Position numbers and translations under genes: made by a program. 64,000 nucleotides of DNA from a virus, in the IMG/VR virus record IMGVR_UViG_3300003873_000002, positions 64,001 to 128,000 of that record; one strand, written 5' to 3'. The notes beneath the pieces are model-generated. The model worked only from the letters and a program-made list of their open reading frames with translations. It made no database searches and had not been told where the DNA came from. Of this stretch, positions 12,584-61,191 are shown in pieces (the stretch's first letter is position 1; every line of letters begins with the position of its first letter).

Positions 12584-12590
12584 GTTATTT

Positions 12591-12640
12591 ATACTATGTT
12601 ATACTATGTTATACTATGTTATACTATGTTATACTATGTT
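12591..12640. repeat. Tandem repeat (ATACTATGTT)x5
   Basis: Five perfect 10-nt units between promoter and start codon. Confidence 0.95.
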
Positions 12641-12642
12641 AT

Positions 12643-12671
12643 ATTATAATATAATAATTATAAGAAAGCAA
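12643..12671 (-). promoter_or_regulatory. sigma70-type promoter
   Basis: TTGCTT-N17-TATAAT on the minus strand. Confidence 0.6.
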
Positions 12672-27762: not shown

Positions 27763-28287
27763 TTATTTCGGCTTTTTAAAAACTGGTAATTTTTCTTTAT
27801 ATTTATTTATATCCAAATCTTTAAGTTTATCGTTTTTGATTAGTTCTATCTGTTTTTCTGTATATGTCCATACATCTGCTTTCCATTTACCGAGTGCTTC
27901 CGCAATTTTTCTAAATTTATTCGGATAGCCCACATAATCACCTATAGATCTAAAATTATATTTAACACTTATAACATCATAAATATACTGTTCTGTGATT
28001 GTGTTTAATGTGTTTATTGTGTTTATTGTGTTTATTGTGTTTAATGTGTTTAATGTATCTGTTTTATCATTGTGGATTTTTGACACGATAACTAATTCGT
28101 TATTTTTTATCGTGATTTCTTTATCATCACTTATATTAACCGCATTAATAAATGTTTCACGATCAACATTTATTAAATCTGATGGCAGATTTTTGTATTT
28201 AGTTAATTTATTTTTTGGGTAAAACAGTTTTTTTGATGGTGAATATTTCATATTAGTAACCCACTGCACTCCATGTAATTGTTGCAT
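27763..28287 (-). CDS. Tail fibre assembly protein
   Basis: MKYSPSKKLFY and F...AEALGKWKADVWTY motifs; true start probably ATG 28251; in-frame TLN/TIN 9-nt repeats. Confidence 0.6.
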   Translation of the reverse strand: MQQLHGVQWVTNMKYSPSKKLFYPKNKLTKYKNLPSDLINVDRETFINAVNISDDKEITIKNNELVIVSKIHNDKTDTLNTLNTINTINTINTLNTITEQYIYDVISVKYNFRSIGDYVGYPNKFRKIAEALGKWKADVWTYTEKQIELIKNDKLKDLDINKYKEKLPVFKKPK

Positions 28288-38165: not shown

Positions 38166-38230
38166 ATAAACTGTTATAAACTGTTATAAACTGTTATAAA
38201 CTGTTATAAACTGTTATAAACTGCTGTAAA
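38166..38230. repeat. Tandem repeat (CTGTTATAAA)x5 plus a variant
   Basis: Direct reading. Confidence 0.95.
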
Positions 38231-40242: not shown

Positions 40243-41022
40243 ATGAAACTTGTTGAATTATATAGTAGTTGTGTTGTTATTTCTATTGCGACATCATTAT
40301 CAACTGTTATGTTGTATAATCACCACACCAATGAAAACCACGCTAATCAAAGTATTAAAAATAATGTTAATCACACTCAAATCCCATTTGTTTCTGATTT
40401 AAAACACCTTCAACCAAATAAAAAAAGTAGTCCAATTGCACAACCACCACAACCACCACAACCACCACAACCACCACAACCACCACAACCACCACAACCA
40501 CCACAACCACAACCAGATAAACAAGTGAAAGTGTCACCAGATAATGAATTGGAATATTTGACGGTTAAAACTAATTATATAAGCAGTGATTATAAATATG
40601 AATTAAATCTTCTAGCAGAAGCCATGTTTTTTGAAGCACGCGGTGAGGGTAAAATGGGTGTAACAATGGTTTATGATGTGATTATGAACCGTGTGCACAA
40701 CAAACATTTTAGTGATACTATAGAAGGTGTTATACGAAGACATAAGGCATTTAGTTATCGCCATGCATTTACATATATTGAAAGACAAAATATTATGAAA
40801 AAACATCAACACACATATAATAAAATCAAAAATATTGCAAACAAATTGCTTCATAGCAAAACTTATAGGGATTATACTCTAAATTCAGTTTACTATTTTA
40901 ATTTCAATAAAGTGCACCCATCATGGTATTCACATGAATATGTGACTGTAGTATACAAAAACCATGTATTTTTGAACGATTGTCGAAGAGCAACACAACC
41001 GCACACAATCGCACTTAAATAA
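40243..41022 (+). CDS. Cell wall hydrolase (SleB/Hydrolase_2) with N-terminal anchor and PQP linker
   Basis: LAEAMFFEARGEG..G...V..VIMNRV..F..TI.GVI....AFS, YYFN...V.PSW, NHVF; (CAACCACCA)x8 linker. Confidence 0.85.
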   Translation: MKLVELYSSCVVISIATSLSTVMLYNHHTNENHANQSIKNNVNHTQIPFVSDLKHLQPNKKSSPIAQPPQPPQPPQPPQPPQPPQPPQPQPDKQVKVSPDNELEYLTVKTNYISSDYKYELNLLAEAMFFEARGEGKMGVTMVYDVIMNRVHNKHFSDTIEGVIRRHKAFSYRHAFTYIERQNIMKKHQHTYNKIKNIANKLLHSKTYRDYTLNSVYYFNFNKVHPSWYSHEYVTVVYKNHVFLNDCRRATQPHTIALK

Positions 41023-49886: not shown

Positions 49887-52226
49887 ATGCATAATATTAA
49901 AGTTAGAAAGAGAGATGGTAGTTTAATAGATATAGACTACGAAAAGATCCATAAATCTATCGCATTTTGTACGAATGGATTAAGCAATGTTTCTATATCA
50001 GAAATTGCAATGAACTGCAAAATTAATTTTTTCGATGGAATAACAACAAAAGAAATACATCAAAATATCATTAAATCTGCGAAGGATTTAATATCTGAAA
50101 AAACACCCAATTATCAAATAGTAGCAGGAAGAGCACTAAATATTGATATCAGGAAAAATGTATATAACCAATATACACCACCATCATTATATTCAATTAT
50201 CACTAAAAACGTGGAAGATGGATGGTACGATAGTGAAATACTAGAAATGTATAGTGAGGATGAAATTAATGAACTTGATAGTTATATTAATCATTCACTT
50301 GATGAAAATTTCACATTCAGTGCGTGGAAACAATTAACATCGAAGTATCTAGTGCAAAATAGAACGCAACGAGATGATTTTAAAGAAACACCACAAATCA
50401 TGTATATGTTAATTGGTATGACACTTTTTGGAAAATACAAAGAAAAACGATTAAAGTATGTTAAGTCATTTTACAATTTAACTGCTGTTAAACAAACACT
50501 TGGTTTGCCTACACCAATTCTAGCTGGGGTGAGAACACCAACAAGACAATTTAGTTCGTGTGTGCTTGGAAAATGTGGTGATAACCTGCAGTCAATTTCA
50601 GCATCAAGTAAATCAATTATTGATTATGTTTCAAAACGAGCTGGTATCGGTTGGGATATGTCTGCCATTAGACCGATTGGGTCGTCTATTAGAAATGGAG
50701 AAGCGTATCACACTGGTATTATCCCATTTATCAAGCATATGAATTCTGCTGTGCAAAGTTGCTCACAGGGTGGAATCAGAGGTGGTGCAGCAACCATTTA
50801 TTATCCTATTTGGCATTATGAAGTAGAATCATTGATTGTTTTAAAGAATAATAAGGGAACTGATGAAAACCGAGTAAGAACATTAGATCATGGATTTGCA
50901 ATCAATAAACACTTCTATGATTGCGCTATAAATGGTGATGATTACTATTTGTTCGATGTCAAAGATACACCTGGTTTATATGAAGCATTTTATTCAGCAG
51001 ACCAAACCGAATTTGTTAATTTATATAATAAATATTCAAAAAAACGGAAAATCAGAAAACAAAAAGTAAATGCAATGGAGTTACTTACACGAATTGAAAT
51101 GGAACGTGTATCTACTGGAAGAGTTTATATGATTCACCCAGATTTAATGAACTCACAGACACCCTTTATTAAAGATAAAATTTATCAATCGAATCTTTGT
51201 CTTGAAATAGCATTACCAACTGCGGATCTTACTAAATGGTCATCATTGACAACAGAAGAGTGTTTGGAATTAGGCATCTATAATAAAGATATGTCTGTAG
51301 ATGATTTTATTGAAAAATTCGGCATTGTTTCACTTTGCACATTATCAAACTTTAATTTTGGCAATATCAAATCAACAAAGGATTTTGAAGAGCTTGCTAA
51401 TATTTCTGTGCGCGCATTGGATGAATTAATTGACTACCAGTATTATCCAATGATCGCAGCTGAAGTCCCTACAAAATCATTCAGATCTGTTGGGATTGGT
51501 GTTAATGGCCTTGCCCATTTTATTGCAAAGCATAAGACTAAATATGGGAAACAATCTGCTGAATTGGTCGATGAATATATGGAAGCAATGAATTATTATC
51601 TTGTTAAAACATCGGTCGAATTGGCTAAGGAAAAGGGTTCATTTGATTGGATTGACCGCACTATTTATAAAACAGATAAACCATTTATTTGGGAACACAG
51701 AAAAGCAAAAATTGATAATATTATACCAATGAAAACCAGAATGGATTGGGAATCATTAAGGGCAGATATTAAAAAATATGGGCAACGCCATTCGACACTG
51801 ATTGCACATATGCCGTCTGAAAGCAATTCTGTTGTGTTCAATGCGACTAATGGTGTGGAACCCATTAGACAAAAAATGACCGTTAAGGGTAACGGTGATA
51901 ACGTCACAAAGCAAGTTTATCCAACGCATTTAAAATATGATTATTTATGGGAAATGGGTGATATGCGGCGCTATATTGAAACACTTGCTGTTATTCAAAA
52001 ATGGACAGACCAATCAATCTCAACCAATATGTCATATGATGCAGAACATTTTGATGATGGGACAATTCCACTTAAAATATTACTTATGGATATTTTGACT
52101 GCGTATTCATATGGGATTAAAACAATTTATTATCATAATAGTAAAGTTAATAATGAAAATAATACAAATAGTGAAAATAATACAAATAACGAAGATGAAG
52201 GCGAATGTGAGAGTTGCAAACTATGA
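49887..52226 (+). CDS. nrdA: Ribonucleoside-diphosphate reductase class Ia alpha subunit
   Basis: ATP cone (VRKRDG), PTPILAGVRTPTRQFSSC, SCSQGGIRGG, QSNLCLEI, C-terminal CESCKL. Confidence 0.97.
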   Translation: MHNIKVRKRDGSLIDIDYEKIHKSIAFCTNGLSNVSISEIAMNCKINFFDGITTKEIHQNIIKSAKDLISEKTPNYQIVAGRALNIDIRKNVYNQYTPPSLYSIITKNVEDGWYDSEILEMYSEDEINELDSYINHSLDENFTFSAWKQLTSKYLVQNRTQRDDFKETPQIMYMLIGMTLFGKYKEKRLKYVKSFYNLTAVKQTLGLPTPILAGVRTPTRQFSSCVLGKCGDNLQSISASSKSIIDYVSKRAGIGWDMSAIRPIGSSIRNGEAYHTGIIPFIKHMNSAVQSCSQGGIRGGAATIYYPIWHYEVESLIVLKNNKGTDENRVRTLDHGFAINKHFYDCAINGDDYYLFDVKDTPGLYEAFYSADQTEFVNLYNKYSKKRKIRKQKVNAMELLTRIEMERVSTGRVYMIHPDLMNSQTPFIKDKIYQSNLCLEIALPTADLTKWSSLTTEECLELGIYNKDMSVDDFIEKFGIVSLCTLSNFNFGNIKSTKDFEELANISVRALDELIDYQYYPMIAAEVPTKSFRSVGIGVNGLAHFIAKHKTKYGKQSAELVDEYMEAMNYYLVKTSVELAKEKGSFDWIDRTIYKTDKPFIWEHRKAKIDNIIPMKTRMDWESLRADIKKYGQRHSTLIAHMPSESNSVVFNATNGVEPIRQKMTVKGNGDNVTKQVYPTHLKYDYLWEMGDMRRYIETLAVIQKWTDQSISTNMSYDAEHFDDGTIPLKILLMDILTAYSYGIKTIYYHNSKVNNENNTNSENNTNNEDEGECESCKL

Positions 52227-53335
52227 AAAATTATTCCACAAGTACATTTAGTAAAAAAAATACATCAAATTTAACTGATACAATGTTTCTTTCTAATAAT
52301 GGTATTGGTGTATCAAGACACGAACATGTTAAATACCAATCAATGTACACAAGACATAAAAAAATGAAATCATTGTTTTGGTCACCTGAAGAGATTGATT
52401 TAACAGCAGATAAATATGATTTTCAAAAAATGCCTGAGTATCAACAAGGTATTTTTACAGATGTGTTATCGCGAGCAGTTCTATTGGATTCTGTCCAAAG
52501 TAGAAGCCCGGTAGAAGCCCTTTTACCTATATGCACGTTGCCTGAATTAGAATCCCAAATTTTAACATGGGGTTTTTTTGAAAACATACATGCAGAAACA
52601 TATAGCCATATTATTAAAAACATATATAATAATCCGACAGAAGTATTTGACGATATTACAAAATCTACCGAAATTTTGAAGTGTGCTGATTCAATTACAG
52701 ACCATTACGATAAATTAATAGAGCTTAATGCAAAACGGATACTGGCAACACCAGATTATGATTTATTTGAGCATAAAAAAATGTTGTATATTACAATGCA
52801 CAGTATTCAGGCGTTAGAATCACTACGTTTTTATTCTGCTTTTGCTGTCATGTTTGCATTTGCTGAGAATGATACTATGATTGGGTCCGCAAACGAATTG
52901 AAATTAATCGCCAGGGATGAATCATTTCATGTTGGCATAACATCTGAAATTATTAAGCTATTGCCTAAGGACGATAGTGATTATATTGAAATTGCAGAAA
53001 TTTGTGCAGATGATGTCCATGCACTTTATAACGATGTTATTTCACAAGAAATTGAGTGGATTAACCATATTTTTAGAAATGGCTCTATGTTGGGTTTAAA
53101 CGCAGAAATTTTAAAGAGTTATATGCTATATATAGGATATCAAAAATTCAGACACTTTAAATTGGATACATCAAAATTTGGATTTGAAGTGGTTAAGAAA
53201 AACCCATTGAGATGGATTGATGTTTGGCTAGATACAACCAACCAACAAGCTGCACCACAAGAAACAGAAATACTAAATTATCAACAAGGTGTCGTAAAAT
53301 TAGGTGGAACAGATGATATTAAAATTGAACTATAG
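52214..53335 (+). CDS. nrdB: Ribonucleotide reductase class Ia beta subunit
   Basis: FWSPEEIDL, LLDSVQSR, FENIHAETY, LESLRFYSAFA, IARDESFH, QAAPQETE. Confidence 0.95.
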   Translation: MQTMKNYSTSTFSKKNTSNLTDTMFLSNNGIGVSRHEHVKYQSMYTRHKKMKSLFWSPEEIDLTADKYDFQKMPEYQQGIFTDVLSRAVLLDSVQSRSPVEALLPICTLPELESQILTWGFFENIHAETYSHIIKNIYNNPTEVFDDITKSTEILKCADSITDHYDKLIELNAKRILATPDYDLFEHKKMLYITMHSIQALESLRFYSAFAVMFAFAENDTMIGSANELKLIARDESFHVGITSEIIKLLPKDDSDYIEIAEICADDVHALYNDVISQEIEWINHIFRNGSMLGLNAEILKSYMLYIGYQKFRHFKLDTSKFGFEVVKKNPLRWIDVWLDTTNQQAAPQETEILNYQQGVVKLGGTDDIKIEL

Positions 53336-53344
53336 GAGTGAAAC

Positions 53345-53560
53345 ATGATTGAGGTTTATATAAAAGCAAATTGTCCAAAATGTGTAGAAGTAAAACACTA
53401 TCTTAAAAACAGAGAAATTGAGTTCAGTGAAATTGAGTTAACACAAGATAATACAGAGTCCATCATTAAAAAGACTGGGGCGAGAGTGGCACCAGTTGTA
53501 TTAATTGATGGTAATTATATCATGAATAATGATATTTTAAATGGGGTTGTTAATTTATAA
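53345..53560 (+). CDS. nrdC: Glutaredoxin
   Basis: CPKC active site; APVVLIDG; follows nrdAB. Confidence 0.85.
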   Translation: MIEVYIKANCPKCVEVKHYLKNREIEFSEIELTQDNTESIIKKTGARVAPVVLIDGNYIMNNDILNGVVNL

Positions 53561-53566
53561 ATCACA

Positions 53567-53599
53567 TAATGGGTGCGTATATGTATTATGCACTCATTA
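53567..53599 (+). terminator. Hairpin after the nrd operon (possible terminator)
   Basis: TAATGGGTGCGTA-N7-TATGCACTCATTA; weak U tract. Confidence 0.45.
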
Positions 53600-53714
53600 A
53601 TTGATATAACCATCAATAAACACAATAAACACAATAAACACAATAAACACAATAAATTAAATAATATCTAGTAATAAACACATATAAACCATGTGAACAC
53701 ATAAGGACGCAATA

Positions 53715-54332
53715 ATGAAACAGCTCAGTGCAGTGGATATAAAAATCAATAATTTTCTTCTTGAGGAAATTACAGATGATATCAGCAAAGCATTAAAACA
53801 CGAAGAGTTTATTGATGTATTTGAAAAATTCAGTGATAAAACAACATTTAAACTCTTAGAATTGCTTGATGACATGTCATCATACAAACAATTGAATCTT
53901 AATGTAGAAGACCATACAATTCAACAGTTAAGAAAAATTACAGAGTCATTAGTTGATTATAGAAAAGACGATAATACACTGTTTAATGCAATTGCAACTA
54001 TTTTTAAAAATGTGACTAAAATTGAAGGCAAATTATGTGGTTATATCTCAAGTGCAACTAAAAGAACATTAATGAAACTACACGACATACCAATTGGTGC
54101 TACATCACGTGAAATATTTGATTTTTTGTTTAATCTTTTTAGTATATTATTTAAATATAAATTTAAGCATAGTGAGTTAAATAACACTATAAAAAGCAAA
54201 CAACTTCGTGCAAAATTTTATAAAACGGTTGCGTTTAAGATTATGGATGAATATTATACTTCGCTAACACAGCATAATTTAAAAGATCAGATTGAAACAG
54301 ACATTTCGTTCGGTTGGAGAAAACCAAATTAA
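53715..54332 (+). CDS. Hypothetical protein
   Basis: 205 aa; AAGGA RBS; preceded by ATTAAATAA. Confidence 0.55.
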   Translation: MKQLSAVDIKINNFLLEEITDDISKALKHEEFIDVFEKFSDKTTFKLLELLDDMSSYKQLNLNVEDHTIQQLRKITESLVDYRKDDNTLFNAIATIFKNVTKIEGKLCGYISSATKRTLMKLHDIPIGATSREIFDFLFNLFSILFKYKFKHSELNNTIKSKQLRAKFYKTVAFKIMDEYYTSLTQHNLKDQIETDISFGWRKPN

Positions 54333-54945
54333 AAAGTTAAATGGTTTAAATATAACATATAATGCATTGAGCGAAAAGTTCAATGATATTTATATTATTT
54401 CTGACACACATTTTATGCATGATAATATTATTAAATATGCAAATAGACCCGCTAGTCATAATCAAATAATGTTCGAAAAATGGAATGAAACCGTTAAAGA
54501 AAATGATTTAATCATCCATGTTGGTGACCTTTCACATGGGTTATATAAATACCATAATGGTGATGAAATATTACACGAAATTTGCACAAATCTAAACGGC
54601 AAAAAAATCCTATTAAGAGGCAATCATGATAGAAACCATGATGAGTATTATAATAACATGGGATTTATAGTCAAAGATTATATTTATATGTCAGATATAA
54701 ACACTATTATAAATCATTATCCACCGATTAGTGATACCTCCAGCAGTATGTATATAAAACAAAAACAGATTGATTACAATACACAATTAATGAAACAGGT
54801 TGATTATAAATACTTGATTCATGGCCACCAGCACAATAACACAAGACAAAATCACAAAAATTGTTTTAACGCCACTGTTGAAAGAATAAATTATACCCCG
54901 ATCAATATCACAGAAATTTTTAAAATACTTCAAATCGACACGTAG
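54292..54945 (+). CDS. Calcineurin-like metallophosphoesterase
   Basis: ISDTHFMH, HVGDL, LRGNHD, NHYP, IHGHQH. Confidence 0.9.
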   Translation: MKQTFRSVGENQIKKLNGLNITYNALSEKFNDIYIISDTHFMHDNIIKYANRPASHNQIMFEKWNETVKENDLIIHVGDLSHGLYKYHNGDEILHEICTNLNGKKILLRGNHDRNHDEYYNNMGFIVKDYIYMSDINTIINHYPPISDTSSSMYIKQKQIDYNTQLMKQVDYKYLIHGHQHNNTRQNHKNCFNATVERINYTPINITEIFKILQIDT

Positions 54946-55206
54946 GTGTCATTCTTTGCCATTCTTTGCCATATATGACATTATGCCAGTCAAACAATAT
55001 AATCTAATTAATCCCCATCAAACTATAATTGTTTGTACATTATAAACACATTATAAACACATTATAAACACATTATAAACACATTATAAAACTCAGTACA
55101 ATGCGCTATATGCGATGATATTATTTCATAGATGGTTTTATGTCAATTTAATAAAAACATACCGTTAATCTCATTAAAATAAAAAAATAAAAAATAAAAT
55201 AAACTG

Positions 55207-55235
55207 TTGACATTTTAATAATAATGATTTATAAT
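55207..55235 (+). promoter_or_regulatory. Consensus sigma70 promoter
   Basis: TTGACA-N17-TATAAT with upstream A-tracts. Confidence 0.8.
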
Positions 55236-55278
55236 AACTATAAATTAATAAAAACCATAAAAATAACAAAGATGTAAT

Positions 55279-55750
55279 ATGAAATGTTATAAAAACTTCA
55301 GCGGCGATAATGTTGTATTGTTTAGAAATAAAACTAGATTGGTTTAAACAAAAACTCTTATGATAATTATAATGTGGAATGCGTTGAATTTGGAATTGAC
55401 ATCGATTTTGGAATTCAAATGCACACATAGATGTTGGTAATATGAAGTTAAACCAAATAACACTTTGTTTTCTGGCGGTTTAGGTAGTTATTTGTCAATA
55501 CATGATAAGGGTTTAAAAGGGTGTGGTGAATATAACAAACATATGTCGTGTATTATGATGATTCAGGCTTTTTAAATACCTTTTAATATTCTGGATATTT
55601 ATAAATCTGGTGATGAGTATAACATTTCTAGCAATGTGAAGAGCCTATTGAATACCCATTAAATCTTATGAAAAACTCAATAATTATTTGGGAAAATCAT
55701 TCAGATATTTTCACGAACCAGATTATAGTAAAGATTTTTTGATGTGTTGA
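55279..55750 (+). pseudogene. Probable degraded gene
   Basis: ~470 nt without a long plus-strand ORF after a perfect promoter; short protein-like fragments in shifting frames (MKCYKNFSGDNVVLFRN; NVECVEFGIDIDFG; YEVKPNNTLFSGGLGSYLSIHDKG). Confidence 0.35.
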
Positions 55751-55776
55751 TTTGTATGTGGGAAAATATTCAATAG

Positions 55777-55836
55777 TTGCAAAAAGAAATAAAATAGTGT
55801 AAAATAGTGTAAAATAGTGTAAAATAGTGTAAAATA
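55777..55836 (+). promoter_or_regulatory. parM promoter overlapped by (AAAATAGTGT)x4 tandem repeat
   Basis: TTGCAA-N17-TAAAAT; the repeat reiterates the -10 box. Confidence 0.5.
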
Positions 55837-55875
55837 AGTACAGATTTAAATTATTAACAACGAGCAGGAGTAATT

Positions 55876-56781
55876 ATGGAAGATGAAATCAGTATCGACA
55901 TTGGGTATGGTCACTGTAAGGTATTATATGCGGGTAAATTAGTAAAATTTCCAACAGCGATTAGTTATGCAAATGATTTAGGTATTTCGTGTGGGGAAAT
56001 GAATTCTTATGAGTTCGAAGGTAAACAATATAGCGTTGGTTCGGACGCTTCTGATGAATCATTTAGTACAACTGATTACAAATTGCTATATAAGTTCGCG
56101 CCATTAATTGTTTTTCATATTTTAAGTAAATTTGATAGAGTTAATGCTGACACACCTATCAATATTAATACAGGATTATCAATTGTTGATTGGGTCCATA
56201 AAGATGGATTTATTGATAGACTATCATGTATTGAAGTAAACGGTAAAAAAATTGATTTGGATGTTACGTTAATCCCACAAGGGGCTGGAGTTGCAGTAGA
56301 TTGGGTAGAGAATCAAAATAATTCTATTTACCCGAACAAACTTTCTGTTATTGATATCGGATTTAACACCATTAATCTAATTTATATGGAAAAAGGTAGA
56401 TTAATCAGACAAAAATCAAAACCATATCCTGGGCATGGTATTGTTTCAATTATTAATACATTCTCGACATACCTAGAAAACAAATATTCAATGAATTTTA
56501 GTCAGCAAGAAGCTAATGATATTTTCCTCGATGGTGAATTCTTCTACAATGGTGAAGACCAAGAAGATGTTAAATCGCACATCAAAACAATCAAGGAGCA
56601 ATTTGTTTCAAAACTTTTCAATACTATTTTGGTTGACGCTAAAAAAACATTTGCAACATCAAATGTAGTGCTTATTGGAGGTGGTGGCGCTTATATGCTC
56701 GATGACATCCCAATGCCACCAAATGTTGAATTTGTCGCTAAAGATTATGAATACTCGAATGTCCGTGGATATGCGATTTAA
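55876..56781 (+). CDS. parM: ParM/StbA-family actin-like ATPase
   Basis: Phosphate 1 IDIGYGHCK, TGL, connect 1 PQGAG, phosphate 2 VIDIGFNTIN, adenosine LIGGGGA, connect 2 YSNVRGY. Confidence 0.85.
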   Translation: MEDEISIDIGYGHCKVLYAGKLVKFPTAISYANDLGISCGEMNSYEFEGKQYSVGSDASDESFSTTDYKLLYKFAPLIVFHILSKFDRVNADTPININTGLSIVDWVHKDGFIDRLSCIEVNGKKIDLDVTLIPQGAGVAVDWVENQNNSIYPNKLSVIDIGFNTINLIYMEKGRLIRQKSKPYPGHGIVSIINTFSTYLENKYSMNFSQQEANDIFLDGEFFYNGEDQEDVKSHIKTIKEQFVSKLFNTILVDAKKTFATSNVVLIGGGGAYMLDDIPMPPNVEFVAKDYEYSNVRGYAI

Positions 56782-56838
56782 ACACATTAAACACATTAAA
56801 CACATTAAACACATTAAACACATTAAACACATTAAACA
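56778..56838. repeat. Tandem repeat (TTAAACACA)x~6.8
   Basis: Fills the gap between parM and the next gene. Confidence 0.95.
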
Positions 56839-56849
56839 GGAAATAAATT

Positions 56850-57152
56850 ATGCAAACAGAAACAAAAGAAATTACTATTAAACTTGATGGGAATTCAATT
56901 GATGTTTTAAAACAAGTTGATAGTATGTACAGAGAATCAATCATTAATATCGGAATTCGTATGATTTCCTTGACACCATATTATAAATTTTTATCTGGAA
57001 AGGATGATGTAGCTGACATTAATGCATTGACATCACTAGATACAAACTGCAATACCAATGCACTACTCGCTAGTGAAAAATCACAAGAAGTTGTGAACGA
57101 AGCGCCATCAAAATTAAAAAGGAAAACAAAAAGCTCATGGGACGATTTATAA
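56850..57152 (+). CDS. ParR-like adaptor (putative ribbon-helix-helix)
   Basis: 100 aa directly after parM; EITIKLD beta strand plus two helices; disordered tail ending SSWDDL. Confidence 0.55.
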   Translation: MQTETKEITIKLDGNSIDVLKQVDSMYRESIINIGIRMISLTPYYKFLSGKDDVADINALTSLDTNCNTNALLASEKSQEVVNEAPSKLKRKTKSSWDDL

Positions 57153-57271
57153 TGGATTTATACCATAAAATAATGTATATGATAGCATTAGGGTGGGTTA
57201 TTTTGCTGTTTTTGTTATTGGTTATTAAACCAATCGATAAATCAACACAATATTTCGAGGAGCATAAATGA
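57152..57271 (+). CDS. Small membrane peptide (39 aa, below track cutoff)
   Basis: MDLYHKIMYMIALGWVILLFLLLVIKPIDKSTQYFEEHK; TAATG and ATGA overlaps with both neighbours. Confidence 0.55.
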   Translation: MDLYHKIMYMIALGWVILLFLLLVIKPIDKSTQYFEEHK

Positions 57272-57834
57272 AAATAATTTTATTAGCAGGCCCTAAGGGG
57301 ATTGGTAAAGATTTTGTTGGTGAATATATGGTTAACACATATGGATTTAAGCGTATTGCATTTGCAGACAATGTAAAAAAAGTAATTGCAAAAACGCTTG
57401 ATCTTAATTTAAGTGAAATTGATTATTTAAAAAATAATGAACAAATGAGAGTTACTAGCATAGAAACGACTAGTGGGCTTAATATGCGCACAATTATTCA
57501 GCGATTCGCTACTGATGCAATGCAATCTGTATTTGGTGAAACTGTTTGGGTCAATGCATTGAAACGAGATATATATAATTTAATTGGTGATTATAATATT
57601 GTTGTTACTGATTTTCGATTTCCACACGAATATGAAGAACTAATTAGAAGCGGATTCAGCGATGACATTGTAACAATAAAAATTACTGATAGATTTAACA
57701 GTTCAAGTGATTCAAGTCATATTAGTGAAAATGCGCTTAAAGATTTTAAATTTGATTATACATTTGTAAATAATAAAGACAATTTTGCAAGACGGGAACT
57801 TGATGATATTGTTATAGATGCGGTTTATGAATAA
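57268..57834 (+). CDS. Deoxynucleoside monophosphate kinase (T4 gp1-like)
   Basis: GPKGIGKD, AFADNVK, R.IIQ.F.T, VVTDFRFPHE, HISE. Confidence 0.9.
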   Translation: MKIILLAGPKGIGKDFVGEYMVNTYGFKRIAFADNVKKVIAKTLDLNLSEIDYLKNNEQMRVTSIETTSGLNMRTIIQRFATDAMQSVFGETVWVNALKRDIYNLIGDYNIVVTDFRFPHEYEELIRSGFSDDIVTIKITDRFNSSSDSSHISENALKDFKFDYTFVNNKDNFARRELDDIVIDAVYE

Positions 57835-57930
57835 CCATAAAAAACATATAAATCATTGTAGAATTGTTGAATGCAAAAATATTGGTAAGTGGACTACGAA
57901 TGATTTAATTATCAAACTATAAGGGAAAAT

Positions 57931-58257
57931 ATGAAATCGTGTATCATAACAAATGAACAATTAGAAATTAACAAGAAAATTTTATTAGAAGCAAAAAACG
58001 AATTTGACCGAGAAGAGTTTCACGATTTTTATAATAATGTAATGGAGTTTAAGCATGAAAATCATTTAGAGACTTTACTAGAGGCAATTATTGGGTACGC
58101 AGAAGAACACAACCTTGATATGTTGGATGTTGCTGATGTTATTAAAAAAGACAATACAATGTCAGACATTCTTACATCAGATTTAATTAAAAATAAACAA
58201 ATCAAATTTGTTAATAAAGATGATAATATTATTTATCAAGTCGAGGAGTGGATATAA
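57931..58257 (+). CDS. Late transcription coactivator (T4 gp33-like)
   Basis: LLEAIIGYAEEHNLDMLDVADVI motif; adjacent to gp59-like gene as in T4. Confidence 0.65.
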   Translation: MKSCIITNEQLEINKKILLEAKNEFDREEFHDFYNNVMEFKHENHLETLLEAIIGYAEEHNLDMLDVADVIKKDNTMSDILTSDLIKNKQIKFVNKDDNIIYQVEEWI

Positions 58258-58833
58258 ATGATTTCATTTGAATCACAATATAATATCGCATTTGGTATTT
58301 TTTTGACATTCGATAAGAAACTAAAACGCCCAAAATTAAAAGTCAAACATAGTAATGAAGTGATCCAAAAATATGCATTGATGTTTCCATATATTAAGTT
58401 TGAAAGCACGACACGCAATTTATTTATAAGCACATGTCTTTTTATAATGTTTAAAAGGACACCGTCATCGTTTTACGCTATGATGGAAAGATTGAGAGAT
58501 GTTGACCCCAAAGATGTGCGCGAGTTTTTATATGAAATCAAATCTTACCAACAGAATATACAATTAGATATTGATTACATTATGTCTATTTATCAAAACA
58601 ATGTCGACACCAATGACGTATTTAACGAATACCAACGCAAGAAAATCCATTTTTATACGTTGTGGTTTTACATAAAGTCGCTCGAAAAACATGATCCAGA
58701 AAGGGTTAATTTTAAAAACTCAAGAATACATATGATTATTTATAATAAACTAAGCAGTTTAATGCTTTTTTTGAAATTTAAACCGGAATCCATCGAAAAA
58801 ATAGAAATGATGTATAATACGATGGAGCTATAA
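58258..58833 (+). CDS. Putative helicase loader (T4 gp59-like)
   Basis: Position after gp33-like gene, ~190 aa size, YQRKKIHFYT and Y.KL....FLK segments; weak similarity. Confidence 0.45.
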   Translation: MISFESQYNIAFGIFLTFDKKLKRPKLKVKHSNEVIQKYALMFPYIKFESTTRNLFISTCLFIMFKRTPSSFYAMMERLRDVDPKDVREFLYEIKSYQQNIQLDIDYIMSIYQNNVDTNDVFNEYQRKKIHFYTLWFYIKSLEKHDPERVNFKNSRIHMIIYNKLSSLMLFLKFKPESIEKIEMMYNTMEL

Positions 58834-58890
58834 TTGGGTCTCTTAAAGTATTCAAAAAATATTCAAAAAATATTCAAAAGCATTTAATTG

Positions 58891-58919
58891 TTGACAAATA
58901 TAGTTAAAGATGTTATAAT
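58891..58919 (+). promoter_or_regulatory. Consensus sigma70 promoter
   Basis: TTGACA-N17-TATAAT with TG extension. Confidence 0.8.
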
Positions 58920-58991
58920 ATAACAATAGAGCAGAATAGAACAGAATAGAACAGAATAGAACAGAATAGAACAACAGGAGAAATAAAAATA

Positions 58992-59957
58992 ATGTGTACA
59001 CCGATGAAAAAAATTAACGAGCGTGAATTTATTTGGGCCCAAAAGTATAGACCCCAAACTGTAGATGATTTAATTTTTCCTGATAAAATTAAGAAAAAAT
59101 TTCAATCATATGTCCAATCAGGCGAAATTCCAAATATCGCATTATGGGGTTCAATTCCAGGTTCGGGTAAAACATCTGCGGCGACTGCGATTATTACAGA
59201 TCTTGATTGTGAAGTGCTATGGATTAATGGGTCAAGAGAAAGAGGTATTGATGCGGTTAGAGTAAATATCACAAATTTTGCTTCAACAAATTCAATTGAT
59301 GGAAGAGCAAAGGTGGTAATTATTGATGAAGCGGATCAATTAACTGCCGATGCACAAAAGGCATTGAGAGGCATTATCGAAGAAGTTTCTGTATCATGCA
59401 GATTTATTTTTACTGGTAATTACAAAGATAATATGATCGATCCTTTAATCAAACGCTTTATCTCATATGATTTGGATGAGTTATATCAAAGTGAATATAA
59501 ACAAGAACTTGGTTTGCAGATTTATCATAGATTGGTGTATATCCTTGAAAACGAAAATATTAGTTATGCACAAGATGATATCAAATCTATCATCACTAAT
59601 ATGTATCCATCCACAAGAGATATGATTATGATGTTACAAGAATCGTCATATGGTGGCCAATTAGAAGTCAAAAACACAATCGATACTTTATCACATATTA
59701 AACACGCATTCGAATTAATTAAACAAAATAATTTTCCAGCATTGCGTTTAATGTTAAATGAAGTTACTATGGTTGATACGTTTATTACACAAGTTTTCAA
59801 ACACATCGATGAATATTTTGCCGTTGAGTCAATCCCTAAAGTAATTATGTTATTATCAGATTGTCAGGATAGTGCTAGAAATGCAAAAAACCCAACCATT
59901 ACAATTACTGCACTATTTACGAGAATAATGGGTGACAAAAGCATCATTTTGTTATAA
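58992..59957 (+). CDS. Sliding clamp loader large subunit (T4 gp44-like)
   Basis: WAQKYRPQTVDD, PGSGKT, IIDEAD, AQKALRG, SCRFIFT. Confidence 0.92.
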   Translation: MCTPMKKINEREFIWAQKYRPQTVDDLIFPDKIKKKFQSYVQSGEIPNIALWGSIPGSGKTSAATAIITDLDCEVLWINGSRERGIDAVRVNITNFASTNSIDGRAKVVIIDEADQLTADAQKALRGIIEEVSVSCRFIFTGNYKDNMIDPLIKRFISYDLDELYQSEYKQELGLQIYHRLVYILENENISYAQDDIKSIITNMYPSTRDMIMMLQESSYGGQLEVKNTIDTLSHIKHAFELIKQNNFPALRLMLNEVTMVDTFITQVFKHIDEYFAVESIPKVIMLLSDCQDSARNAKNPTITITALFTRIMGDKSIILL

Positions 59958-60003
59958 AATATAATAAAATTCAAATAAAGTATAATAAAAGGAAGAGTTT
60001 GAT

Positions 60004-60606
60004 ATGATTTTTAAAAGCACAAAAACATTTAATAATTTACCATGTTCACACCAGCAATGGATGGATTCTGATGAGGATGGGGTAATTGGTGCAGGTCAAT
60101 GTGCCCAAACACATGGATATAGTAGATCGTTTATTTTCGAATTTTCTTGTAGTGAAGTAGATAGTTATGGGTGGGTCGTGGGTTTTAGTTCACTTAAAAA
60201 GGTTAAGAAGTGGCTAGAATATATGTTTGACCATACTTCATTATGGGAATCATCTGACCCTCGCATCGACGATGTACTCAAAATAAATGATGAATTAGAT
60301 ATTCCATTATATAATTTAAGGGTTCTACCCACTGGTGTGTCTATGGAACAAACAGCATTATTTGTTTCTATGTATATTAATCCTTATATTTATGATACTA
60401 CTGATGGTCGTTGCTGGATTTCTAGACTAGAAGTTAGAGAGAACGATAAGAATTCAGGTATTATTGAATTGACTGAAGAAGATGCGATTAAAATGTCACA
60501 GCGGTTGAATGAATATGAGCCTCATAATTATTTCCCAACTAGGACTGTTTATAGATATACCATGCCAAAAAAATTAATTAACGAAATTGACACGTTTAGT
60601 GTTTAA
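60004..60606 (+). CDS. queD: 6-carboxytetrahydropterin synthase (QueD/PTPS-like)
   Basis: SHQQW, CAQTHGYSR, GWVVGF, FDHT, DP, SME, VRENDKNS. Confidence 0.85.
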   Translation: MIFKSTKTFNNLPCSHQQWMDSDEDGVIGAGQCAQTHGYSRSFIFEFSCSEVDSYGWVVGFSSLKKVKKWLEYMFDHTSLWESSDPRIDDVLKINDELDIPLYNLRVLPTGVSMEQTALFVSMYINPYIYDTTDGRCWISRLEVRENDKNSGIIELTEEDAIKMSQRLNEYEPHNYFPTRTVYRYTMPKKLINEIDTFSV

Positions 60607-60649
60607 AGTGTTTAAAGTGTTTAATGAAATAGATTGAATAGAGGTATTT

Positions 60650-61117
60650 ATGAATGAATGGGGTATTGAGCTACCCCCTCCACCTATGGAGGAGGTAGTT
60701 ACACCAAAAACAAAGAAAAAATCAATATTTGATATTATTGGTTCAACATATAATAAGAGATATTTTGCAAGTGATGAGGATATAAATAGCTCATTGAATG
60801 AATTCATGCTTGTAAATATATTATCAAATCACCCTGCTACAATTTTTTTGGCTGAGTACTTAAACAATCATAATATGCCATTACCAACAGCTTATAGATT
60901 TATTTATCATTCAATTCCAAAGGGTGCTATTCGAAATATTTTATATCCATCGAATAAAAAATCACAAAAAAATATCAGTGAAGATGAAATAGAGGTGATT
61001 TGCAAACATTATAAATGCAATGAAGTTATTGCACAAAAATATTTTAATATTTTGCCAAAAGAAGAACTTGATAAAATTGTGGATATGTATGCTGAGGGTG
61101 GTATAGTCAACCAATAG
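60650..61117 (+). CDS. Clamp loader small subunit (T4 gp62-like)
   Basis: SIFDII, FML...LS, ICKHYKCNE..A..Y..IL, terminal GG. Confidence 0.75.
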   Translation: MNEWGIELPPPPMEEVVTPKTKKKSIFDIIGSTYNKRYFASDEDINSSLNEFMLVNILSNHPATIFLAEYLNNHNMPLPTAYRFIYHSIPKGAIRNILYPSNKKSQKNISEDEIEVICKHYKCNEVIAQKYFNILPKEELDKIVDMYAEGGIVNQ

Positions 61118-61191
61118 TCAACCAATAGTCAACCAATAGTCAATCAGTAGATAGTCAGTAGATAGTCAGTAGATAGTCAGTAGATAGTCAG
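61103..61191. repeat. Two abutting 11-nt tandem repeats (ATAGTCAACCA)x3.7 and (TCAGTAGATAG)x4
   Basis: Direct reading; the first unit includes the stop codon of the gp62-like gene. Confidence 0.95.

Follow-up and report, generated by a model that had tools for sequence, protein, structure and literature searches.

A ParM-type actin-like ATPase and a small tryptophan-tipped partner protein are encoded as a linked pair in large, mostly virulent phages

Two neighboring genes of a large T4-like phage, in the window analyzed here (the whole 64,000-nucleotide stretch, i.e., bases 64001–128000 of the 154,123-bp IMG/VR record IMGVR_UViG_3300003873_000002, which has a guanine-plus-cytosine content of 30% and is estimated to be 85% complete) encode a ParM-type actin-like protein (ALP) and a 100-amino-acid (aa) protein, referred to below as the partner (Table 1). 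An initial annotation had described both, together with a small membrane peptide and nearby short repeats, as a ParM-ParR-like segregation module. Plasmid systems that move DNA by means of actin-like proteins are well understood, and among prophages one such system (AlpAC) has been investigated; actin-like cassettes in phage genomes are, as such, already known. New here are this ALP subfamily with an unnamed adaptor family whose members carry a terminal tryptophan (W), the strict linkage between the two, and their presence in cultivable lytic phages; one ALP subfamily and one adaptor family can thereby be defined as a clean two-gene unit.

The ALP is recognized as an actin-fold ATPase by sequence and by predicted structure. 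It matches Pfam ALP_N (PF17989) at 3.7e-13 (50.4 bits against a cut-off of 26.3) and MreB-like_C (PF21522) at 6.5e-9 (36.9 bits against a cut-off of 27.8), phrog_691 ("partition protein") matches it at 8.5e-32, and among PDB sequences it is closest to the plasmid actin Alp12 (1e-5). An AlphaFold2 (AF2) model built from 25 relatives has the two-lobed actin/HSP70 fold, with a predicted local distance difference test score (pLDDT) of 88.8 and a predicted template modeling score of 0.84. When this model was compared with solved structures using Foldseek, pCBH ParM (6ixw) came first at 5.7e-17, followed by Ta0583, pSK41 ParM, R1 ParM, CorM, Alp7A, Alp12, and AlfA, with MreB and actin ranking behind; identity to the solved ParMs is 15–21%, at Foldseek values of 1e-14 to 1e-17. 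Invariant across the 25 relatives are D8-x-G10...K15, P134-Q-G-x-G138, D160-x-G162..T165, and G269-G-G271, and the phosphate-1, connect, phosphate-2, and adenosine motifs are all intact. Both the fold and the motifs are thus those of a ParM-type protein, and the description of this gene in the initial annotation as an actin-fold ATPase with ParM motifs was correct.

The partner belongs to a family with a characteristic architecture of its own. An exhaustive profile search returned 128 representative clusters at E ≤ 1e-3 (64 at E ≤ 1e-10), with members of 63–211 aa and no fusions among the 128 representatives. The word-index search had found the partner itself alone and tblastn against phages nothing relevant, and both must be regarded as false negatives because homologs surfaced through synteny and a hidden Markov model (HMM). 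In the partner, residues 5–45 follow a strand-helix-helix pattern, residues 50–93 form a disordered linker that is basic at its C-terminal end, and the protein closes with the tip S-W-D-D-L. Across an alignment of 47 members, hydrophobic residues at positions 8 (77%), 10 (98%), and 12 (100%) alternate with variable polar residues at positions 7, 9, and 11; then come a D13-x-x-S16 helix cap, helix 1, a turn (R28, S/T30), helix 2 (I32-N33, G35), and a variable low-complexity linker. The best conserved residues are W97 (45/47), D13 (44/47), R28 (43/47), S/T30 (40/47), and S16 (38/47). The C-terminus reads S-W-D-(D/N/S)-F or ends in a plain W, and a W stands within the last six residues in 110 of the 128 representatives. 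The AF2 model of the monomer agrees with this layout, having helices at residues 14–22 and 25–41 (pLDDT 83–89 over residues 11–40), an extended N-terminus, and disorder past residue 50. This is the pattern of a ribbon-helix-helix (RHH) domain with a tethered peptide tip, that is, the ParR layout, although the assignment to the RHH fold is unproven.

To what extent the two genes belong together was apparent from a survey of IMG/VR, in which 36 loci encode relatives of the ALP. The partner is present in all 16 loci whose ALP is at least 43% identical, always on the same strand and 0–1.7 kb after the ALP stop codon, whereas it occurs in 0 of the 20 loci with ALPs of 22–31% identity, the Campylobacter CP220 group included; downstream of the distant ALPs of this group and of those of Vibrio and Rhizobium phages, no gene of the partner family was found. 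Behind each of the two closest metagenome ALP relatives (85% and 79% identical) stands a gene for 93–94 aa whose product is 48% and 37% identical to the partner, respectively. A small HMM detected the partner in the vicinity of the ALP at all loci retrieved, those of phages YerA41 (gp106) and Carin-5 (gene 216) among them; in both of these phages a dUTPase gene stands between the two genes and the pair is still kept. When the search was started instead from distant partners, an ALP gene lay directly upstream in all three informative contigs (L012, L013, and L014). The co-occurrence of this ALP subfamily with the partner is therefore strict, as the survey itself states in its counts, and it holds across phages that differ in the replication genes next to the pair. 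The gene order of type II ParMRC systems, a ParM gene followed by a small adaptor gene in the same operon, was likewise found at 16/16 loci.

The same counts bear on the view that the 100-aa protein is no adaptor of the ALP and merely lies near it, being either an RHH transcription regulator or a protein whose tip recruits the sliding clamp or an SSB-tail-binding replication protein. Acidic tails with a terminal aromatic residue are used by SSB-type and clamp-binding phage proteins, the binding of the ALP by the partner is only inferred, and the two genes are non-adjacent in YerA41 and Carin-5. A bystander would hardly be expected to accompany one ALP subfamily so strictly (16/16 versus 0/20 loci), to stay linked to it amid different neighboring replication genes, and to have a counterpart of the same layout after ParM in plasmids, and we consider this explanation very unlikely. 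That a ParM-like ATPase is paired here with a ParR-like adaptor, as had been proposed for the locus, is supported by the linkage and by the ParR layout, and we conclude with high confidence that the ALP and the 100-aa protein form a cognate pair.

The plasmid counterparts were found among Campylobacterota plasmids, which carry the closest plasmid ParM/StbA genes (30–33% identical to the ALP). Each of these genes is followed by an overlapping gene of 86–97 aa with the same layout as the partner and a terminal Trp; pHRV44, pCIG1485E, and Campylobacter upsaliensis plasmid 2 all show this arrangement of a ParM and a small gene ending in Trp. In the small proteins, the N-terminus is strand-helix-helix and the tip reads V-E-x-(G/A)-W; they do not match any ParR model of Pfam or NCBIfam and probably represent an unnamed ParR family. 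Taken together, the linkage survey and the plasmid relatives indicate that the two phage genes are inherited together, as a unit with kinship to the type II par loci of plasmids. Like the type II ParMRC systems of R1, pB171, and pSK41, the locus consists of a gene for a ParM-fold ATPase and then a gene for a protein of ~90–100 aa with a strand-helix-helix domain, a linker, and a conserved tip. It differs from them in that the small protein has no curated ParR match, no conserved parC was found, and the replicon is that of a lytic-type phage instead of a low-copy plasmid.

This kinship raises the question of whether the locus acts as a classical type II ParMRC system by which the phage genome would be partitioned as a low-copy episome (in a carrier or pseudolysogenic state or as a phage-plasmid), with the tandem arrays beside the genes serving as parC; an episomal carrier or pseudolysogenic state had been suggested in the initial annotation. 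The similar small gene downstream of each plasmid ParM/StbA relative would fit such a role, as would the arrays flanking the ALP gene, since arrays of 9–10 bp in 5–7 copies resemble the parC of R1 and pSK41. The arrays are, however, a property of the genome and not of the locus. Counting perfect arrays with a period of 7–13 bp and at least three copies, we found 47 in the whole genome (3–11 copies; mode of the period 10 bp, with 26 arrays of exactly 10 bp) and 0 in shuffled genomes; nearly all have a different unit, and they occupy 33 of the 113 intergenic gaps of at least 40 bp (29%). At this density, a given gene would be flanked by an array on either side in about 8% of cases. The initial annotation had itself allowed that the repeats might be arrays occurring throughout the window, and the count shows such arrays to be genome-wide; the period of the downstream array is 9 bp and not 10.

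Nor are arrays found near the pair in the loci of relatives. In one of them (L005), ALP stop codon and partner gene overlap, in another (L006) a 61-nt non-repetitive spacer separates the two genes, and neither has repeats upstream. As the arrays are genome-wide and missing from the orthologous loci, the repeats fail as an established parC, and parC iterons adjoining the operon, as known from type II ParMRC systems, were found neither in the window nor in 17 relatives, although a centromere might lie elsewhere.

The nearest isolates that carry the pair are two lytic-type phages, and what is known of them bears on the same question. The infections of Yersinia ruckeri by YerA41 (PMC7354516) and of Cobetia marina by Carin-5 (PMC12686479) are described as lytic. 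In the RNA sequencing of YerA41, the ALP gene (g140, 305 aa) and the partner gene (g142, 95 aa) are both classified as "middle," and neither product was detected in virions (PMC7354516, Table S2). Neither paper discusses the ALP or the partner gene (PMC7354516, PMC12686479). In our record, no integrase or resolvase was found; being only ~85% complete, the record could be missing a lysogeny gene. Genes for T4-type late transcription and for replication are present. Given that YerA41 and Carin-5 are lytic, that the YerA41 pair peaks in the middle phase, and that no integrase or resolvase was found, segregation of a low-copy episome is therefore disfavored, and we regard it as quite unlikely. Of the two functions that had been considered for the locus, segregation in an episomal or carrier state thus recedes, and the positioning of replicating DNA by filaments is the better reading; for the link to a flagellin gene that had been attached to the former, there is no evidence.

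We therefore favor, at somewhat better than even chances, the reading of the locus as a ParMR-derived two-gene cytoskeletal module of large, mostly virulent phages that moves, separates, or anchors replicating DNA in lytic infection; for a role in DNA positioning during the lytic cycle taken by itself, the chances are about even. In the mechanism that we envisage, the pair would be expressed with the genes for replication and nucleotide metabolism, the ALP would polymerize with ATP into filaments, and the N-terminal domain of the partner would dimerize into an RHH and sit on phage DNA. The Trp tip, on its flexible basic linker, would dock on the ALP filament as the tail of ParR does on ParM, and filaments coupled in this way through the adaptor may position or separate replicating phage genomes in lytic growth, as do AlpC/AlpA and PhuZ. 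We have moderate confidence in the two predicted contacts, of the tip with the ALP and of the N-terminus with DNA.

Two phage systems offer comparisons for such a role. AlpC and AlpA of prophage CGP3 are needed for efficient replication and positioning of phage DNA and not for inheritance (PMC4446434, PMC5539076). As in the AlpC/AlpA/alpS system of Corynebacterium glutamicum CGP3, a phage ALP is here combined with a small adaptor; in CGP3 the adaptor binds DNA, is co-transcribed with the ALP gene, and is expressed with it before the structural genes. In contrast to the pair described here, however, the CGP3 system belongs to a cryptic actinobacterial prophage, and the repeats recognized by AlpA precede its own operon, whereas the present phages are large virulent-type myoviruses with no conserved adjacent repeats and an adaptor family that has no named relatives; the comparison is a functional one only. 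The second is PhuZ, which forms the tubulin spindle of phiKZ-like jumbo phages (PMC4244570). It would resemble the ALP, again as a functional analogy only, in being a phage cytoskeletal NTPase that positions replicating DNA in lytic growth, but it has a tubulin instead of an actin fold, lacks a DNA adaptor, and acts together with a nucleus made of chimallin.

Instead of phage DNA, the pair might target the host, by reshaping the cell, displacing the nucleoid, or tethering filaments to the membrane. A precedent is CorMR, a chromosomal ParMR derivative that controls cell shape in Anabaena and illustrates that ParMR can lose DNA segregation (bioRxiv 10.1101/2025.06.27.661541). CorM is both a sequence and a structure match of the ALP, a conserved centromere beside the genes was not detected in 17 relatives, and the partner gene of this phage is followed by one for a membrane peptide. 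However, the N-terminal pattern of the partner fits a DNA-binding RHH, the membrane peptide is not conserved, and the context is one of DNA replication and nucleotide metabolism: in the window and its relatives, the neighbors include genes for ribonucleotide reductase, topoisomerase, helicases, exonuclease, dUTPase, deoxynucleoside monophosphate (dNMP) kinase, and clamp loader. An action on the host thus appears unlikely.

Several results weigh against a DNA-positioning module and concern the following points. (i) The partner family has no match in Pfam, NCBIfam, PHROG, or PDB sequences, and no curated ParR or RHH model recognizes it; Pfam searches with 47 members gave scattered chance matches only, and the profile gave a single chance match among PDB sequences. 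(ii) In structure comparisons, the partner model found no match in the PDB with Foldseek, and VIA-align scores did not exceed Z = 3.7, and unrelated chains scored as well as ParR of pB171 (2.9) and an RHH antitoxin (2.7); of the RHH-like protein with an acidic, aromatic tail that the initial annotation had seen, the tail, the strand-helix-helix pattern, and the ParR layout therefore stand, but the RHH fold does not yet. (iii) The nearest named Atlas clusters of the partner are all RHH families, at scores of only 0.82–0.84 that make them leads only. (iv) Between the plasmid small proteins and the phage partner family, hhalign finds a similarity that is collinear, yet weak (P = 0.0012, probability 19%). 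(v) A conserved iteron cluster next to the genes is lacking in 17 relatives, where any 7-mer reaches at most 4 copies per 150 bp, within the background of the locus.

If filaments of this kind position replicating DNA, the organization of phage infection by a cytoskeleton would reach beyond the nucleus-forming jumbo phages. A bolder and rather doubtful extension is that the pair represents an unstudied, widespread actin cytoskeleton of virulent large phages, in which the W-tipped RHH adaptor would couple filaments to many dispersed sites of the often hypermodified phage genome in cells that have no phage nucleus, with the ~10-bp arrays, or the subset of them sharing a TAAACAC core, as landing pads. 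Such a system would be to actin what the PhuZ spindle is to tubulin. Both YerA41 and Carin-5 can be cultivated, and imaging and knock-outs of the pair are feasible there. For YerA41, our results also call for re-annotation of gp104 (labeled "DnaK-like chaperone" in the sequence record) as a ParM-like ALP and of gp106 as its W-tipped partner; YerA41_104 had been called a "putative structural protein" in the 2020 paper (PMC7354516). The annotation of YerA41 includes a predicted sigma-70 promoter, P19, immediately before YerA41_106.

Table 1. Features of the ALP–partner locus and of related loci (positions refer to the window unless another locus is named)
Feature	Position	Strand	Remarks
ALP, ParM-type actin-like ATPase	55876-56781	+	301 aa; AGGAG 7 nt upstream of start
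ALP partner, ParR-like adaptor	56850-57152	+	100 aa; C-terminus K-S-S-W-D-D-L
Small membrane peptide open reading frame	57152-57271	+	39 aa (44 aa from ATG at 57137); 19-residue hydrophobic stretch
dNMP kinase	57268-57834	+	Directly after the membrane peptide reading frame
gp33-like late-transcription coactivator	57931-58257		Pfam Trans_coact, 2.2e-6
phrog_12320 protein	58258-58833		Function unknown; between coactivator and clamp-loader gene
Perfect sigma-70 consensus, TTGACA-17-TATAAT	55207-55235	+	640 nt upstream of ALP start
Tandem array, TAAAATAGTG x4.7	55790-55836		Perfect; upstream of ALP gene
Tandem array, TTAAACACA x6.8	56778-56838		Perfect, 9-bp period; begins on ALP stop codon and fills the ALP-partner spacer
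Arrays with TAAACA(C) core	53614-53656, 53674-53703, 55037-55090, 56778-56838	+
Arrays with TAAACA(C) core	28000-28056, 60598-60624	-
Examples of the genome-wide arrays in the window	12589-12647, 38166-38223, 40439-40510, 53614-53656, 55037-55090, 58925-58973, 61103-61191
YerA41 ALP (YerA41_104)	4001-4918 of L001 (MW570730.1)		Labeled "DnaK-like chaperone"
YerA41 partner (YerA41_106)	5734-6021 of L001		Labeled "hypothetical"
Carin-5 ALP	4001-4915 of L002
Carin-5 partner (Carin5_00216)	5710-6021 of L002		Labeled "hypothetical"
Plasmid small genes overlapping the 3' end of ParM/StbA	L052 2872-3150, L053 2888-3148, L054 2887-3180		Annotated hypothetical

Among the 47 arrays, several with different periods (9, 10, and 11 bp) have a TAAACA(C) core in common, and four of these lie close together around the ALP gene, within 3.3 kb. 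The core could be a protein-binding motif or a product of chance: it is shared by 6 arrays, and 500 shuffles gave a mean of 4.1 and a maximum of 6, which leaves it as a lead only.

A further contig (L007, JGI 3300003177) was set aside as an independent relative, as it is 100% identical to positions 52001–61132 of the window and comes from the same phage. It lacks seven blocks of 40–113 bp, among them 56410–56468 inside the ALP gene, with split gene calls as the result. The missing blocks are most likely assembly gaps or artefacts, natural deletions being unlikely, and the shorter array and split ALP gene of this contig are therefore no evidence of slippage or decay.

The membrane peptide had been counted as a coupled member of the module. 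Its open reading frame, its hydrophobic stretch, and its overlaps with both neighbors are real, since its start overlaps the partner stop codon (TAATG) and its stop overlaps the start of the dNMP kinase gene (ATGA). Its membership in the module did not stand, as the peptide is absent from L005 and L006 and occurs in this phage alone (L007 being the same phage). The peptide and the flanking arrays thus lie outside the conserved module. Further downstream of the pair is a gene for a clamp-loader subunit, and upstream are a glutaredoxin-like reading frame and a phosphoesterase gene. No tRNA gene or Rfam family is present in the window.

Upstream of the ALP gene lies a 930-bp gap (54946–55875) with no reading frame above 36 aa on the plus strand and no Rfam match, where L005 and L006 have only ~90 nt. 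Possible explanations are a long leader, a small RNA, and the remains of a gene that has decayed. The promoter assigned to the pair in the initial annotation (TTGCAA-17-TAAAAT, 55777–55805) matches the consensus at 9 of 12 positions and is not distinguished from background, as 26 such sites occur in the region and 27.2 would be expected. No T4-type late motif (TATAAATA) was found on the plus strand from 54813 to the ALP start. The perfect sigma-70 consensus at 55207–55235 is an uncertain candidate for the early promoter of the operon, and in L005 a 12/12 sigma-70 promoter stands directly upstream of the ALP gene. An 11/12 promoter match is also present in the gap, at 54975–55003.

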